A DNA stretch of 64,000 nucleotides. Origin: Candidatus Nomurabacteria bacterium (GTDB lineage: Bacteria; Patescibacteriota; Minisyncoccia; Phycocordibacterales; SBAW01). A model generated the notes under the pieces. The model saw only the letters and a program-made list of their open reading frames with translations, did no database searches and was not told where the DNA came from. This document shows positions 45,174 to 61,109 of the stretch, one piece after another. Position 1 is the first letter of the stretch, and each line of letters starts with the position of its first letter. The translations under genes and the position numbers were made by a program. The stretch is taken from NCBI GenBank assembly GCA_943356415.1, contig CALREW010000001.1, positions 149,252 through 213,251 of the forward strand, written 5' to 3'.

Positions 45174-46877
45174 TCAGTCATCCTTTCCTTCCAACATCTC
45201 TTGGCGGTTACCATGCATCCATTCAAATGCACTAAGCATAACGCCCGGCGCACCGTAGAGATTTTTGTACGGTCCATGCTCAAGTAAAAGAACAAACGCA
45301 TACCGCGGATGTTCATAGGGGAAAAATCCGGTAACCCACGAATTAACATACGATTTACTCGAATCAAGTTCTGCGGTACCTGTCTTCGCAGCAATATGCA
45401 CGTAACCGAGGTTTAATGCCTTCGCGGTGCCTATCTGCGCACCCATGCGCATACCTTCAAAAAGTATTTGGTACTCCTCATACGTCATTGGCAGTGTCCC
45501 TTCTTTGCGTTCGCCGCGTGCACCCTGGATGATGGTTGGTGTTATAAGCGTGCCACGCGTGGCGATGGCCGAAACGGCGCGCAACGCCTGCAGTGGCGTG
45601 ACTTGAAAACCGTATTGACCAATAGATGTGTTGTACGTGTCGCCAAGACGCCACGGGTCGTCAGGAAACAGTTTTGCTTTCCACGCCTTACTTGGCACCG
45701 TGCCGTCTTCTTCTGGAAAATAGTCGATGCCGGTCTTTGAACCAAACCCAAAAGACCTGGCGTACTTTTCAAGCTTCTCTATTCCCAAACCCGCTTGATC
45801 ACCGAACCCGCCGCCTATGGTAAAGAAGTACACATTCGAAGAGACGGCGATGGCTTGGCGCATATCAACCCAGCCATGCGCTTTCCAATCTTTAAAGACG
45901 CTTGGCTTATCCGGGTTATATGGGTTTGGAACCGTGAGTGCACCCGTTGAAAGTATCGACTTCGTTGGACTAATAAGATTTTCGTTTAAGGCACCGAGTG
46001 CAAAGTAAGGCTTCATGATCGAACCTGGCGTAAAAGCGCCGAGTATCGCGCGGTTAAGAAACGGCTGACGCGTATCTTTTAAATACCCACGTATTGCTGC
46101 TTGATCACTTCTATCCGTCATAATCTGAGGGCTATACGACGGATAGCTCGTAAGTGCGAGTAATTCCCCCGTCGTAAGATCCATCACCGCGGCCGCGCCT
46201 CCACGAAAACCCGATTCTTCGATACGCGCTGCAAGGGCGTTATAGATAACCTGATTCAACTCTGCGTCAACGGAAAGCGCGATGGTCTCGCCATGTTTTG
46301 GCGCTGCAATAGTACTTTCTGAAGTTACCCTGCCTTTGGCATCAGTTTCCTGAATTTTCAAACCGTTTACCCCGCGCAGACGTTCATCAAGTGCTTTTTC
46401 TAATCCTTCGGCGCCAACGTACGTATCTTGGTAGTAAATGCCGGAAGAATCTTTTGCTGGTGCTTTTGCGTACCCAATGACGTGCGAGAGTCCCGTATAC
46501 GACGAATACACGCGCGAGGGGTAGTCACTGCCCTCTTTGTGTGAGTCGTGCACGAGGTCAACGCCACGCCGGTCAACAATGGTGCCGCGGTCAGCAAACA
46601 CATATTCGTGTGAAAGACGGTTGTTTTCAGAAAGCGCCGCATACGCAGTGCCTTCAAATATCTGTAAGTACGACGCTCTTCCGGCAAACGTAAGGACGAC
46701 GAGTGCAAAAACACCAAGAAGCACGGACGCAGTTCGTCGGCGAATCGGTTGCTCGATGCGTCCTTCAAACTGGTCGGTATCAAACGAAGGCAAATTGCTC
46801 GAGTCGATAAATATTTCGTCGGGAGCTATCTCCTCACTCTTTCGCTTTAACCCACGCAACAACTTTCTAAGCGGCAT
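45174..46877 (-). CDS. mrdA: Penicillin-binding protein 2 (elongasome class B transpeptidase)
   Basis: SIMKP, SSN, KTGTAE motifs; downstream of mreBCD. Confidence 0.85.
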   Translation of the reverse strand: MPLRKLLRGLKRKSEEIAPDEIFIDSSNLPSFDTDQFEGRIEQPIRRRTASVLLGVFALVVLTFAGRASYLQIFEGTAYAALSENNRLSHEYVFADRGTIVDRRGVDLVHDSHKEGSDYPSRVYSSYTGLSHVIGYAKAPAKDSSGIYYQDTYVGAEGLEKALDERLRGVNGLKIQETDAKGRVTSESTIAAPKHGETIALSVDAELNQVIYNALAARIEESGFRGGAAAVMDLTTGELLALTSYPSYSPQIMTDRSDQAAIRGYLKDTRQPFLNRAILGAFTPGSIMKPYFALGALNENLISPTKSILSTGALTVPNPYNPDKPSVFKDWKAHGWVDMRQAIAVSSNVYFFTIGGGFGDQAGLGIEKLEKYARSFGFGSKTGIDYFPEEDGTVPSKAWKAKLFPDDPWRLGDTYNTSIGQYGFQVTPLQALRAVSAIATRGTLITPTIIQGARGERKEGTLPMTYEEYQILFEGMRMGAQIGTAKALNLGYVHIAAKTGTAELDSSKSYVNSWVTGFFPYEHPRYAFVLLLEHGPYKNLYGAPGVMLSAFEWMHGNRQEMLEGKDD

Positions 46878-47268: not shown

Positions 47269-48058
47269 ACGCGCTTCTCCACACTTCAGCAAAGCGAAGT
47301 GAAAAAGGATTGGCCGCAAGGTGCATATATATTTCTGCCGCAGAATCTCCCCTCCCGGCTTCGATACTCTCTACGACAAACGACAAATTGGGTTCAATGC
47401 CCGGCAGCGTCACCAAGTCGCCCGCTGCCGCTTCCGCATCATGCGGGACTGATGCTTTGAGAGAACCTCCGCCGATACCTTCGGCGCGAATAGGAATACT
47501 GCCGCGCAAAAATGCATCGTATGAAGTATTGGGAGCAGAGTAGAGTTTTATGCGCGCAGTGGTGGCGTAGACCGCCTCGACGGTGCCAATAAGGAATGCC
47601 CCGCTTGCCGCAACGCGGTCCCCAACCTTCACTTGTTTATCTTCCCCGGCGTCAATGATGAGCGTGTCATAAGGACTCTCAGGTGGGCGCACCAGGACTG
47701 CCGCAAGGAGTGCATTTGGCTGTGCGGAACGACCCATCGATTCTTTGAGCGTGAGATTCTCTTCGTACAAGAGATTGCGATCAAGTACCGCGAGCTTTGA
47801 GGCAGCGAGTTGCTCTTTAAGCGAATCTCGTTCACGCAAAAGTGCATTCATCCCTCGAAAATACTCGGGCACTCGACCAAGTCCAGTACTGCTTATGTCG
47901 CTCGCACGCCACAGAGCCGAGAGACCTCCTCCTACCACTCGTTCAAGTGCTGGACGAAAGAAGAAACCAGCAATAAGGAGGGCAATAAAAAAACCGACCG
48001 CAACGAGTGCTCGGCGCAGCCCAGGACCTCGCTTTCTATTACGATAGATCGTCGTCAT
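47258..48058 (-). CDS. mreC: Rod shape-determining protein MreC
   Basis: N-terminal TM, coiled coil, beta-rich C-terminus; follows mreB. Confidence 0.75.
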   Translation of the reverse strand: MTTIYRNRKRGPGLRRALVAVGFFIALLIAGFFFRPALERVVGGGLSALWRASDISSTGLGRVPEYFRGMNALLRERDSLKEQLAASKLAVLDRNLLYEENLTLKESMGRSAQPNALLAAVLVRPPESPYDTLIIDAGEDKQVKVGDRVAASGAFLIGTVEAVYATTARIKLYSAPNTSYDAFLRGSIPIRAEGIGGGSLKASVPHDAEAAAGDLVTLPGIEPNLSFVVESIEAGRGDSAAEIYMHLAANPFSLRFAEVWRSAYAE

Positions 48059-49103
48059 GTTCGATAAGAATGTCGCGGTAGCTTTCTATATCTTCAAGTA
48101 CCACACCCGCGCCGCGTGCAACCGCGGTGAGCGGATCGTCCGCAACATGCACCGGTATTTTAACCCACTCGGAAATTAAGCGATCTAAGTCTTTTATAAG
48201 TGCACCGCCTCCCACTAGGTAAATACCGCTCTTCATAATATCGGCAAGTATTTCAGGCGGCGTTGTTTCGATAACTTCACGCACCGACTCAACAAGCGTA
48301 TCGATAGACTGCGACACCGCTTCGCGCACATCAGAGTCCGTCACAATCACTTCGCGCGGCAACCCGGTAATAAGATCGCGTCCGCGTACCACCGCTTCAA
48401 GTGGTCGGTCGCCTTCAATCACCGCTCCGATAGCCATCTTTACATTTTCTGCCGTTTTCTCTCCTATCAATATTTTGAACTCCGATCGTATATGAGAAAT
48501 GATGTCCTGATTGAGTTTGTCTCCCGCGATTCTGAGATTTTTTGAACGAACGATGCCACCAAGCGAAATGACGGCGATATCAGTGGTGCCACCACCAATA
48601 TCGACAATCATTGAGCCGACCGCTTCTTTTACCGGAAGACGGATGCCGAGCGCTGCAGCCATCGGTTCTTCGATAATGTGCACTTCGCGCGCGCCAGCAT
48701 TCTGAGCCGCATCGCGCACCGCGCGTATCTCGACGTTCGTAATGCCGGAAGGCACACCCACGACAACGCGTGCGCCGAGCAGTTTTCTTCCTTCACCCTG
48801 CGCACGGTTCATCAAATATGCCAGCATTTCTTCGGTCACTTCGAAATCTGAAATAACACCGTCAACGAGCGGACGCACCGCAACAAGATGTCCGGGAGTG
48901 CGCCCCAACATTTCCTTTGCAGAGGCACCCACCGCAACAACACGGCCGGTCTTTTGGTTGACCGCCACGACTGATGGCTCATTGACTACAATGCCGCGCC
49001 CGCGCACATAGACAAGCGTATTGGCCGTTCCGAGGTCGATGCCGAGGTCGTTGCTCGCGAGGCTCGCTATTTTTTCACGCAGTCGTTTAAACATAGAGAG
49101 CAT
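48039..49103 (-). CDS. mreB: Rod shape-determining protein MreB
   Basis: Actin-like ATPase with canonical MreB motifs (DLGTANTLVYV, VDIGGGTTD). Confidence 0.9.
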   Translation of the reverse strand: MLSMFKRLREKIASLASNDLGIDLGTANTLVYVRGRGIVVNEPSVVAVNQKTGRVVAVGASAKEMLGRTPGHLVAVRPLVDGVISDFEVTEEMLAYLMNRAQGEGRKLLGARVVVGVPSGITNVEIRAVRDAAQNAGAREVHIIEEPMAAALGIRLPVKEAVGSMIVDIGGGTTDIAVISLGGIVRSKNLRIAGDKLNQDIISHIRSEFKILIGEKTAENVKMAIGAVIEGDRPLEAVVRGRDLITGLPREVIVTDSDVREAVSQSIDTLVESVREVIETTPPEILADIMKSGIYLVGGGALIKDLDRLISEWVKIPVHVADDPLTAVARGAGVVLEDIESYRDILIEHDDDLS

Positions 49104-57267: not shown

Positions 57268-58281
57268 CTACCTCTTAGCAATAATGGAGCGCTTATACGT
57301 ATCGAGGTGCTCGAGAGCGATGCCAGTCCCCTTCGCTACACAATAGAGCGGATCTTGAGCAAGTTCAGCGCGTACGCCGGTGCGGCGCAAAACAAGTTCA
57401 GGAAAATTGCGCAACTGACTCGTGCCACCCGTCATGATGATGCCATAGTCGATGATATCGGCCGCAAGCTCTGGCGGCGTCTCTTGCAGAACATCGCGAA
57501 TCGCTTTGATTATCTCGCGCAATTCACGACCAATTGCTTTTACTATTTCGTTGGTGCGGATTTCAGTCTGACGTGGAAGCCCGGTGATAAAGTCGCGTCC
57601 TTTAATGATCATCGCGAGCTCTTCTTCAACCGGCACCGCGGAACCAACCTGTATTTTTATTTGCTCTGCCGTCTTGTCTCCAATCGCAAGGTTAAAGGTC
57701 TTCTTTATATAGTCAGCGATAGCGTGATCAAGCCTATCGCCCGCACACTTCACCGACGTTGAGGCGACGATGCCGCCGAGAGAAATCACTGCGACGTCAG
57801 TGGTTCCTCCACCTATGTCGACAATCATATGTCCGCGTGGTTCTTGGATGGGAATACCTGCGCCGATAGCGGCAAGCACCGGTTCTTTAACCACATACGC
57901 GTTTCGCGCACCCCCCTTTATCGCCGCCTCAACAACTGCGCGGCGCTCAGTTGATGTAACACCTGCCGGCACCGATACCATTACTTCAGGTTTAAAGAAT
58001 GAGAAGCGTCCCATCGCTTTGCCGATAAAGTAACGCAGCATCGCCTGCGTCACGCGATAGTCCGCGATAACCCCGTCGCGCATCGGCCGATACGCGATAA
58101 TCTCGTCCGGCGTGCGGCCGATCATTTCCTTTGCTTCAAAGCCAACCGCAAGAATGCGCTTATCTATTTCTGAAATAGCGACAACTGAAGGTTCGTTGAG
58201 GATGACACCTTTACCGGGTACGAATACGAGTGTATTTGCAGTGCCTAAGTCGATTCCGAGTTTTGGAGAGAAAAACGACAT
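57268..58281 (-). CDS. mbl: Second MreB paralog (Mbl/MreBH-like)
   Basis: Full-length MreB-like with all actin-fold motifs. Confidence 0.85.
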   Translation of the reverse strand: MSFFSPKLGIDLGTANTLVFVPGKGVILNEPSVVAISEIDKRILAVGFEAKEMIGRTPDEIIAYRPMRDGVIADYRVTQAMLRYFIGKAMGRFSFFKPEVMVSVPAGVTSTERRAVVEAAIKGGARNAYVVKEPVLAAIGAGIPIQEPRGHMIVDIGGGTTDVAVISLGGIVASTSVKCAGDRLDHAIADYIKKTFNLAIGDKTAEQIKIQVGSAVPVEEELAMIIKGRDFITGLPRQTEIRTNEIVKAIGRELREIIKAIRDVLQETPPELAADIIDYGIIMTGGTSQLRNFPELVLRRTGVRAELAQDPLYCVAKGTGIALEHLDTYKRSIIAKR

Positions 58282-58320: not shown

Positions 58321-60030
58321 TTAGACCTCTTCGGGCCTGTATTTTACCGCGCGCACTTCTTCTTCCTTTGGACTTTGGTACGCGACCGTAAAATCAAGTT
58401 TCCCATCTCTTTCGACTACAGAAACACTCGCTGTTCCAGCAACATCGTTTGGGGCTATGACCATTATGCCCAAGCTATCACGCATACGTTCTGCAATACC
58501 TCCTGCTTGGCCCGTTGAACATGAATCAAGAATCAATGTCGCGTCTTTTGAAAAAAAGTCTTTGGCGCGCCTATGTCCAGGCCCTGCTAAATGTTCACTG
58601 GTAAGTGAACCAAATTGCGAAAACTCAATGTTGTCTGGCGCTCCGTGCCCACCGAGGATTGCAAAATCTATTTTGTGCTCATACGCCTTACCGAGATGCA
58701 GTAAGTGGCGCGCAACATCGCGCGACGAAGCAACTTCAAATATTTTGACGCCGTGATGGGCTTTCACGCTCTCAAACAATGCTTTAAATTCGGTTCTTTC
58801 ATTGTCAAAAGCAGCAATTTCTTCAGCGTTGTCAGCATATGGAAACATGATGACCCCGTAAGGGCGATCTACCTTTTCTTCTTGCAGCTGTGAAAGCAGC
58901 ATTTCTTCCGGATATCGGTAGAACTCACGTATTCCGTAATCCTTAAAGAGGCGTTTGACCGAACCTGGCGTAGATTTTTCAAGGGAACTACACGCCTCAA
59001 AAAATTTATACAGTGCGATTTCTTTATATCCTTTAGGATTTCTGTTTAGGTCAAACATTTCGCGCAACGATACGCCGTACGTTTGTGCAAAGGTTTCGCC
59101 GTACTTCTCGAATCCATATTCGGCTGCCTTCGGTCCCGACAGAAGCAAGTGTTGAAATAGAAGTGAGTCAGAAATGCCGCCAAGCGATTCAACAAATTGT
59201 GTCCTGGTTTTGTCTTTTTCTGGCAGTGCAAACAAGAAGCGCGTCACGCCATGACCCTCCTCTACTATTCTCTGAGCTGCATCATGATCCATCGAGGGAA
59301 CGATTTGCTGAAGTGCAGAGAGAATCTTTGTTTCTCGACCCTTAGGCAAGGGCATGTGCTCAAACGCAGGTTCCGCAAGCAGTCGATCGATAAGTTTGAC
59401 GTACGTCCATCGCACTTTCTCTGCATCATCTTCAGACTTCCCAAGAGTCGACAGTGACTCCATATTTTCAAAGACGGCACCGGCAAGCGCTGCGCGTAAC
59501 TGAGGTAATCGTTTGGTCGCCAACAGTGACCTGTAGAGGTTCGAGAGTTTTGGAATCAAAACGTTATGATCCTCTGCGCGCTTCAATGCATACGAAAGAT
59601 TGCCGAGATGTATGGCTTTTGCCAACTCCTCGTCTTTTGGAGACTCCGCAAATGTCATCTGCGCCGCACCTTCAACGTGAAGTACTTCTACTCCCTGTCT
59701 AAAGAGACGGTCCATTGGTCCATACACGGTTTCTTGAAGAAGTGTTTCTTCATCTCGAGGTGCCACAATTTCTTTTTGTGCAAGCAACTCAGTCGCTCCT
59801 TCGCGCAACGTATCCTTCGCAGCTGCAATGTCCTGCTCACGTCTCTCGGCACGCGCCGGTACAAAAAAGCGTTTCGCCGCATGCAACACTCCCTTCTCTT
59901 CGCGCGTCAGTGCGTCGCGTTCTCGACGTCCAGCACGCAACTGTGCTGCCCACTGATCGCGGTGCTCCTGTACTCGTGGATCAACGAGGCCGGGTTTCTT
60001 TGGCCCGCGGTTTGGACCTTCCATATTCAT
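58321..60030 (-). CDS. Uncharacterized 569-aa protein with C-terminal caspase-like (clan CD; CHAT/C11-like) His-Cys dyad domain
   Basis: Hydrophobic strand plus GGHG, then about 40 aa later TLILDSCSTG (His and Cys after beta-strands). Confidence 0.5.
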   Translation of the reverse strand: MNMEGPNRGPKKPGLVDPRVQEHRDQWAAQLRAGRRERDALTREEKGVLHAAKRFFVPARAERREQDIAAAKDTLREGATELLAQKEIVAPRDEETLLQETVYGPMDRLFRQGVEVLHVEGAAQMTFAESPKDEELAKAIHLGNLSYALKRAEDHNVLIPKLSNLYRSLLATKRLPQLRAALAGAVFENMESLSTLGKSEDDAEKVRWTYVKLIDRLLAEPAFEHMPLPKGRETKILSALQQIVPSMDHDAAQRIVEEGHGVTRFLFALPEKDKTRTQFVESLGGISDSLLFQHLLLSGPKAAEYGFEKYGETFAQTYGVSLREMFDLNRNPKGYKEIALYKFFEACSSLEKSTPGSVKRLFKDYGIREFYRYPEEMLLSQLQEEKVDRPYGVIMFPYADNAEEIAAFDNERTEFKALFESVKAHHGVKIFEVASSRDVARHLLHLGKAYEHKIDFAILGGHGAPDNIEFSQFGSLTSEHLAGPGHRRAKDFFSKDATLILDSCSTGQAGGIAERMRDSLGIMVIAPNDVAGTASVSVVERDGKLDFTVAYQSPKEEEVRAVKYRPEEV

Positions 60031-60188
60031 ATAAGGATTCTACCTTGCCGTACCGAGGAGTCACTTGTACCCACAGTAACCCTTTTAGGACTGAAAATGA
60101 AAAATAGATTCTCTGTAGGTTTTCCAAAAGAAAAGCCCCCGCCTTGCAGCGGGGACTTCACCACCAGGCCGGAGCCTGGATTTAGATA

Positions 60189-61034
60189 TCAGTTGCGGAG
60201 CGTGGTCCGCAGGTCCTCCATGTGGGCCAGATAGCCCCTCAGCAGAGCGTCGCCCTGCTGGCCGCGACCGGCGTCCTCGTGACGACGGTCGGCAAACTGG
60301 AGGGTCTCCGGCCGCGTGCCGAGCTTCTTGGCCGCATCCTGCAGGACGACCTTGGCGGCGCCCATGGCGTCCCACTTGGCGCCTTCCGTGCCGTCCTTCG
60401 CGAGGTAGGCCGCATGCCAGAGAGCCTGGCTCGAGCGCAGCCCGAGAACGGCGGTGCGGATGCCGTCCTTGTCGTCGAGGTAGGCCTGGGTCGCGGTGAT
60501 GCGCCGGTCGAGATGCGCCATGAAGCGCGCACGCTCGTCGGAGTTCATCTCGCGCACCGTCTTGATGACGGTGAGCTTGTGCTTGTCGTAGAAGGCCTTG
60601 AGGCCCTCGGGCGTCGACAGCACGGATTTGCCCAACGCCAGGGTGACCTTGCGCCAGTTGTAGATGGCCTCGGAGTCCTCCTTCGTGATCCGCGCCTCCT
60701 CGAGGTCGTAGGAGCGCGAGAAGGTGAAGGACGCGTAGAGGACATTGTAGAACTGTCGGTCCTCGTTGACGGCCAGCAGCGGCTGCAGTTGGTCGCGGTA
60801 GAACGCCTGCCGCTCCATGCCACCGCGATCCTCGTAGACCCGCTGGTCCACCGAGGCCATCACCATGCTCGCCACCGTCTTGTTGGTGACGAAGCTGAGG
60901 GCGACACTCGTGGCGACCTGGTCGGTGACGGCCTTGATCTTGGCGCTGATCGTCGGCGACTGCGCGACCACCACGCTGGTGGCCGCCAGAGTCATCAGCG
61001 CTGCGCCAACGATGGCGCGACCGATATTGTTCAT
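60189..61034 (-). CDS. Hypothetical secreted protein (GC-rich island); start placed at MNNIGRA
   Basis: Signal peptide; GGGAG RBS; alternative long ORFs on both strands are Arg/Gly-rich artefacts. Confidence 0.4.
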   Translation of the reverse strand: MNNIGRAIVGAALMTLAATSVVVAQSPTISAKIKAVTDQVATSVALSFVTNKTVASMVMASVDQRVYEDRGGMERQAFYRDQLQPLLAVNEDRQFYNVLYASFTFSRSYDLEEARITKEDSEAIYNWRKVTLALGKSVLSTPEGLKAFYDKHKLTVIKTVREMNSDERARFMAHLDRRITATQAYLDDKDGIRTAVLGLRSSQALWHAAYLAKDGTEGAKWDAMGAAKVVLQDAAKKLGTRPETLQFADRRHEDAGRGQQGDALLRGYLAHMEDLRTTLRN

Positions 61035-61109
61035 AGACTTTTGCTCCCGCCGGCAGTGCCGGTCTTCTAGACATGGAAGTGCCAAACAACAACTCATAGC
61101 ACCTGTAAC

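Follow-up and report, generated by a model that had tools for sequence, protein, structure and literature searches.

Clan CD cysteine proteases share the caspase/haemoglobinase fold, in which the His and then the Cys of the dyad stand at the C-terminal end of strand β3 and of strand β4 (PMC4357240). The cysteine protease domain (CPD) of the MARTX toxins, a member of family C80, cleaves itself after a P1 Leu located 30 residues N-terminal to β1 (PMC4357240). PA0256/Tce1 of Pseudomonas aeruginosa is a DUF4347 protein (PMC8262886). Tce1 and Tce2 were described as putative cysteine proteases whose His and Cys superpose on the dyad of the TcdB CPD, and the toxicity of Tce2 in yeast was lost with the C115S substitution (PMC13323088). 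Here, a predicted protease of this kind was analysed in a 64,000-nucleotide stretch of Candidatus Nomurabacteria DNA (contig CALREW010000001.1, positions 149,252 to 213,251), referred to as the window. It is encoded by a minus-strand open reading frame (ORF) at 58321-60030. From sequence and model, its C-terminal domain is predicted with good confidence to be a clan CD (caspase-fold) cysteine protease domain. Together with its homologues, it is most aptly viewed as a clan CD family of its own, so far without annotation, that stands on the DUF4347/C80 side, with DUF4347 (Tce1) and the C80 toxin domains as closest relatives. The fold and the chemistry are known already; what is new is a large family with its own architecture, centred on the Candidate Phyla Radiation (CPR), which the curated libraries searched do not contain. 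Literature searches likewise gave no description of it.

The gene proposed in the initial annotation is real. The ORF is complete, running from an ATG at 60030 to a TAA at 58321-58323, and encodes 569 amino acids in the ORF list. The identical protein in public assemblies (P0001) is called from an ATG two codons further in, which gives 567 amino acids, and the ORF has homologues in 1583 sequence clusters (see below). Two regions were distinguished on the minus strand: a weakly conserved helical N-terminal region (residues 1-349; 58984-60030) and the conserved C-terminal protease domain (residues 350-566; 58333-58983). The window contains a single copy of the protease domain. The initial annotation had placed a His-Cys pair at approximately H465 and C507. 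Both of its motifs are present, GGHG at residues 460-463 and TLILDSCSTG at residues 498-507, but the positions were three residues off. The predicted catalytic histidine is His462 (codon CAC, 58645-58647, minus strand) in FAILGGHG, and the predicted nucleophile is Cys504 (codon TGT, 58519-58521, minus strand) in LILDSCSTG, 42 residues apart. Direct searches with the 569-residue protein returned nothing from Pfam, PADLOC or PDB sequences, and nothing significant from NCBIfam. The N-terminal region, described before as having no recognisable motif, likewise has no Pfam, NCBIfam or PDB sequence match.

Structural models were built at two alignment depths. The AlphaFold model from three sequences was unusable for the C-terminal domain (predicted local distance difference test, pLDDT, <50), and the linker at residues 329-338 was also below 50. 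The AlphaFold (AF2) model from a 150-sequence alignment has a mean pLDDT of 89.7 and a predicted template modelling score (pTM) of 0.82; the domain lies above 92 except for one loop, and the block 331-340 reaches 85. In this model, residues 18-353 are all-helical, with three long helices (18-117) followed by HEAT/ARM-like helical repeats. The C-terminal domain opens with two conserved lead-in helices (LE..PG...L..FGI..F.RYP..L..Q), which are followed by the α/β core. The order of the core elements is β1 (391-397), a helix (409-422), β2 (427-433), a helix (436-449), β3 (454-460, continuing to 464), β4 (493-502), a helix (512-520), β5 (523-527), and a β-hairpin (532-541/544-552). As modelled, the domain would form an α/β/α sandwich, with a central sheet that can be superposed on known enzymes of clan CD. 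His462 lies at the end of β3 and Cys504 follows β4, so that the His precedes the Cys at the positions typical of the clan.

A Foldseek search against the PDB gave the DUF4347 protein Tce1 (9qpe_G) as the top match, followed by caspases-8, -6, -7 and -3, CED-3, PIGK (a subunit of the GPI transamidase), legumain-type endopeptidases, and TPR-CHAT. The clan CD peptidase signature recognised earlier from the motifs is thus matched by a peptidase fold in the model. A full-length family profile was also searched against PDB sequences. Its N-terminal part matched armadillo proteins and designed helical repeats, and nothing else was returned; these matches are probably compositional and were not used as homology.

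The CPR, or Patescibacteria, are ultra-small bacteria that account for a large share of bacterial diversity, and a function has been assigned to few of their conserved proteins. A word-indexed search found three relatives only: the protein itself and two others with 46% and 33% identity, the latter from a Candidatus Adlerbacteria metagenome-assembled genome (MAG). All three keep His462 and Cys504. An exhaustive hidden Markov model (HMM) search from the alignment of these three sequences recovered many more members. Counted as representatives of clusters at 50% identity, they number 1583 for E<=1e-3, 1113 for E<=1e-10, and 549 for E<=1e-30. Nearly all of the matches are restricted to query positions ~340-552, and only 11 of the 150 best start before query position 100. 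Among 150 members, the length varies from 220 to 815 amino acids; the conserved domain is always C-terminal, and in most of them the Cys lies ~60-70 residues before the C-terminus. This family comprises at least 1583 clusters at 50% identity and has no above-threshold Pfam or NCBIfam match and none in PADLOC; it can now be assigned with good confidence to clan CD.

Conservation was counted in a full-length MAFFT alignment of 150 diverse members, which was not anchored on the motif. Exactly four columns are invariant: L361, E432, H462, and C504. The homologue check suggested for the dyad thus gave 150 of 150 for both residues, and their place among only four invariant columns shows that the motif is no chance match. 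At least 90% conservation was found for R372, Y373, Q381, P390, Y391, G392, D400, K453, G463, S503, T506, G507, and P527. With regard to allosteric activation by inositol hexakisphosphate (InsP6), as in C80, several conserved basic residues are present (R372, R/K429, K453, R/K488, and K/R544). Candidate roles can be proposed for three conserved positions besides the dyad. Asp400 (58831-58833, minus strand), in the loop after β1, is a candidate third active-site or S1-pocket residue; it is kept in 147 of 148 sequences and is invariant in alignments A3 and A4. Glu432 (58735-58737, minus strand), at the end of β2, is possibly an S1 or active-site acidic residue. Leu361 (58948-58950, minus strand), 30 residues N-terminal to β1 and within a confident helix (357-365), might belong to the structural core or, more speculatively, serve as the P1 residue of a C80-like autoprocessing site.

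The named host genomes all belong to the CPR (Adler-, Magasanik-, Sacchari-, Nomura-, Peri-, and Staskawiczbacteria), and one further protein comes from Nanoarchaeota. The CPR and Nanoarchaeota lineages include episymbionts. A locus search with a 12-sequence alignment returned 10 GTDB loci only, owing to its narrow search patterns, and it under-samples the phyletic breadth. One member (L011, contig CAYVHQ010000046.1) lies in a bin labelled Gammaproteobacteria, which may reflect a mis-binned contig or horizontal transfer. Phage genomes and a viral fold library gave no significant match to the family, which argues against a phage origin.

The position of the family within clan CD was examined by profile comparisons. 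A profile of 24 diverse C-terminal domains searched against PDB sequences had Tce1/DUF4347 as its sole match (E 0.034). In this alignment, ilggHG pairs with LIATHG and iiLvSCstG with IALYGCDFAG, which places His462 on the HG of Tce1 and Cys504 on its catalytic-site Cys region. Pfam DUF4347 (PF14252) was matched weakly by 6 of 51 full-length sequences, with a best E of 1.7e-7, and by 8 of the 24 domains, with a best E of 2.9e-5. None of the members examined individually (15-24.2 bits) reaches the gathering score of 24.6 bits, and the window protein has no DUF4347 match even at E<=10. The relationship to DUF4347 was found at the structural and profile level, through Tce1. By hhalign, the family matches a small borderline-DUF4347 group with 98.2% probability (E 5e-14); the motifs that align are D-x-N-x-AF, GGHG, SC, and VIAP. 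The borderline proteins P0155-P0157, which lie outside the window, differ from the CPR family in that their N-termini carry peptides of the signal or lipoprotein type. Word-indexed searches from the domain alignment and from P0155 yielded few proteins. In P0157, GPG replaces GHG and the catalytic His is lost.

The architectures of these relatives differ. Tce1 is a 310-residue, Hcp-loaded effector secreted by the type VI secretion system of a proteobacterium, whereas the CPR proteins have a ~350-residue helical N-terminus and no secretion signal. The C80 enzymes (MARTX RtxA, TcdA, and TcdB) resemble the family in the clan CD core, in the His...Cys dyad ~42-49 residues apart, in the protease lying C-terminal to a 'cargo', and in the conserved Leu 30 residues before β1. 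In C80, a β-flap hairpin after β5 replaces helices α4/α5, and the model of the window protein places a hairpin, a possible counterpart, directly after β5. Peptidase_C80 (PF11713) gave no match to the window protein and matched 2 of the 24 domains, with a best E of 0.005. No match was found among the 24 domain sequences for CHAT (PF12770), C11, C13, C14, or C25, nor among the 51 full-length sequences for CHAT. The CHAT proteases (SAVED-CHAT, TPR-CHAT/Craspase) differ further, since the CPR family has no SAVED, gRAMP or CRISPR partner, PADLOC match, or conserved neighbours. Separase (C50) is eukaryotic, far larger, and securin-regulated; no sequence similarity to it was detected, and the likeness is an analogy of architecture only.

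Taken together, these results suggest that the protein is probably a soluble two-part enzyme, with a fast-diverging ~350-residue helical N-terminus and a ~215-residue clan CD cysteine endopeptidase domain. It is also probable that the protease is a regulated, site-specific intracellular endopeptidase that acts on one or a few substrates. In the proposed mechanism, Cys504 would attack the scissile bond as the nucleophile, and His462 would serve as the general base. Asp400 and Glu432 may orient the His or form an acidic S1 pocket; such a pocket would predict a basic P1 residue. The Asp400 loop position is where legumain Asn42 and TcdB Asp587 sit. In the model (pTM 0.82), the helical region packs against the protease in one fixed orientation, and it might act as a substrate-selecting and/or auto-inhibitory scaffold, by analogy with the helical regions of separase and TPR-CHAT. 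The nearest relatives are toxin and effector protease domains, which makes the family a candidate for regulated intracellular proteolysis or host interaction in episymbionts.

Several points weigh against this explanation. Tce1/DUF4347 is itself a 'putative' protease, and clan CD includes transamidases and ligases, so that hydrolysis is one possible chemistry among others. The loop after β1 differs in the window protein: the family consensus is the near-invariant D-H-N-G-A-F, and the window protein has D-N-A-E-E-I-A-A-F with a 3-residue insertion (residues 400-405; 58816-58833, minus strand). The 46%-identical homologue likewise departs from the consensus, and the loop has the lowest pLDDT (70) in the domain of the window protein. 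This loop normally lines S1 in clan CD, so the specificity or activity of the window protein and its closest homologue may differ from those of the family. A cytoplasmic location is probable, as judged solely from the absence of hydrophobic segments (0 of 150 members have a transmembrane-like segment).

The genomic neighbourhood was compared at 12 distinct loci with a family member; the sequence around nine more distant loci reaches up to 6 kb on each side. In the window, the gene 39 nt downstream of the protease gene, on the same strand, encodes an MreB paralog (57268-58281; Pfam MreB_Mbl 1.1e-134, NCBIfam MreB 1.8e-138). Another MreB copy, 44% identical, is encoded ~9 kb away at 48039-49103 (minus strand). 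The spacing and the second paralog were both reported correctly in the initial annotation, which had proposed a pairing of a protease with an actin-like gene. This pairing did not hold in the comparison, as the genome of the window is the only one, among the 12 loci, in which mreB is adjacent. In the syntenic Adlerbacteria relative (L001, with the 33%-identical homologue), mreB is 3.2 kb away, beyond fmt and def, which are both on the opposite strand, and then a small ORF and murA. Downstream of the 46%-identical homologue is a convergent gene of 183 amino acids and then murA, with no mreB in the surrounding sequence. No mreB was found in the sequence around ten loci (L003 and L006-L014). An 'MreB-like' neighbour at L012, the sole actin-fold neighbour, is DnaK. 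The adjacency is a local accident of gene order and not a conserved pairing; the attractive lead of a protease-MreB pair was wrong, and the clan CD assignment corrects it.

No other shared neighbour was found in an all-against-all ORF comparison of the 12 loci, beyond the local synteny of close relatives. The annotated neighbours at the other loci are mutually unrelated and include an EamA transporter, RhuM/Fic, Bro-N, MnmA, oligopeptidase F, an HD hydrolase, and RuvX. In the window, the surroundings are of the housekeeping type (murA, mreB, holB, dinB, nth, a HAD hydrolase, frr, and rseP). The protease gene keeps its chromosomal region in three related genomes, which suggests vertical inheritance. 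PADLOC gave no model matches for the three proteins scanned (the window protein and its two closest homologues).

Other explanations were weighed against the regulated endopeptidase. The C-terminal domain might cleave itself, as the MARTX, TcdA, and TcdB domains do, and free the helical N-terminus as a cargo or effector, maybe after transfer into a host cell and triggered by a small-molecule ligand. The relationship to DUF4347 and C80 as the nearest families by sequence, the variable N-terminus before an invariant C-terminal protease layout in 150 of 150 members, the β-hairpin at the place of the C80 β-flap, and the hosts from lineages with episymbionts all favour this explanation. So does the invariant Leu361, which lies exactly 30 residues before β1 at the position of the MARTX-CPD P1 Leu (PMC4357240). 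The low pLDDT of the linker in the three-sequence model points the same way, although the 150-sequence model scores this block much higher. However, there is no signal peptide, transmembrane segment, or known export route. Leu361 lies within a helix modelled with confidence and precedes a variable, bulky residue (Y/F/N), in contrast to the small P1' residue of C80 sites. InsP6 is a eukaryotic cofactor and irrelevant to bacterial hosts; the C80 Pfam matches are marginal, and the pTM fits two domains in one stable unit better than a cargo that is set free. Autoprocessing is therefore considered unlikely. Its broader form, a CPR-wide and partly DPANN (Diapherotrites, Parvarchaeota, Aenigmarchaeota, Nanoarchaeota, and Nanohaloarchaeota) set of 'cargo' proteins with C80/DUF4347-like autoprocessing proteases, is quite unlikely. 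In such a set, cleavage after Leu361 or in the linker would free a rapidly diversifying helical effector, and a host metabolite could be the trigger. If true, the set would serve episymbiosis and would be the counterpart, for bacterial hosts, of the toxin CPDs that InsP6 activates.

The earlier suggestion of a role in defence or programmed cell death would make the N-terminal region a sensor that switches on a CHAT/caspase-like protease under phage attack, with degradation of cellular proteins in abortive infection. The evidence gathered here speaks against it and leaves this role decidedly doubtful: PADLOC was blank for the three proteins scanned, Pfam CHAT matched none of the 51 full-length or 24 domain sequences, no cyclase, CRISPR or SAVED partner and no conserved sensor or partner gene were found at the 12 loci, the neighbourhood in the window is of the housekeeping type, and the kept chromosomal region suggests vertical inheritance. 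It is very improbable that the protein is not a hydrolase, being instead a clan CD-fold transamidase or ligase, like PIGK and the asparaginyl ligases, or a catalytically silent scaffold. PIGK and peptide ligases do occur among the fold matches, and the borderline-DUF4347 relative P0157 has lost its His, but the strict invariance of His and Cys over 150 sequences argues for catalysis. Transamidation would also share the acyl-enzyme chemistry, as a variation on the endopeptidase explanation and no true alternative to it. A partnership with the second MreB, in which the co-expressed protease would process or regulate this MreB or the cell-shape machinery, is extremely improbable. The protease gene and mreB share a strand, lie a short gap apart and might form one transcription unit in the window genome, but the adjacency is not conserved in the 46%-identical homologue, the Adlerbacteria homologue, or nine more distant members. 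The comparative context largely refutes this partnership.

The transcription signals around the protease gene were also searched. A strong terminator-like hairpin at 60132-60159 (minus strand), with a 12-bp stem, 7 GC pairs, and a T-run, closes the upstream minus-strand ORF. It separates this ORF from the protease gene, which would therefore be the first gene in its transcription unit. A promoter-like element, GTGACT-16-TAGAAT (60037-60064, minus strand), lies just upstream of the start codon; it is weak, with a 9/12 match, and such sites are no more numerous in the region than in shuffled sequences. No terminator was found in the 39-nt gap between the protease gene and mreB, and co-transcription of the two genes is thus possible in the window genome. 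A promoter-like site in this gap does not exceed chance level (3 sites found against 2.6 expected), which neither supports nor excludes an operon.

Some additional features were observed for the neighbouring genes. The MreB gene at 48039-49103 is near a gene for a PBP2-type transpeptidase (45174-46877), and this region resembles the canonical cell-shape cluster. For the MreB encoded at 57268-58281, an Adlerbacteria MAG contains an ortholog of 83% identity, whose gene neighbours murA and holB. At two other loci, the gene immediately downstream of the family member encodes a RhuM/Fic-domain protein (L006, 6763-7737) or a Bro-N-domain protein (L007, 2346-3188); these are typical of mobile or conflict-related regions, in contrast to the housekeeping context of the window. 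Upstream of the protease gene, a public gene call (L004) places a plus-strand frame of 282 amino acids at 60222-61070; its richness in R, G, L, V, and D gives it the look of an antisense artefact. The overlapping minus-strand ORF at 60189-61097 encodes 302 amino acids, beginning like a signal peptide (MNNIGRAIVGAALMTLAATSVVVAQSP from Met22). Pfam gave no match to it, and the strong terminator-like hairpin comes directly after it; this minus-strand ORF, rather than the plus-strand frame, is probably the real gene.
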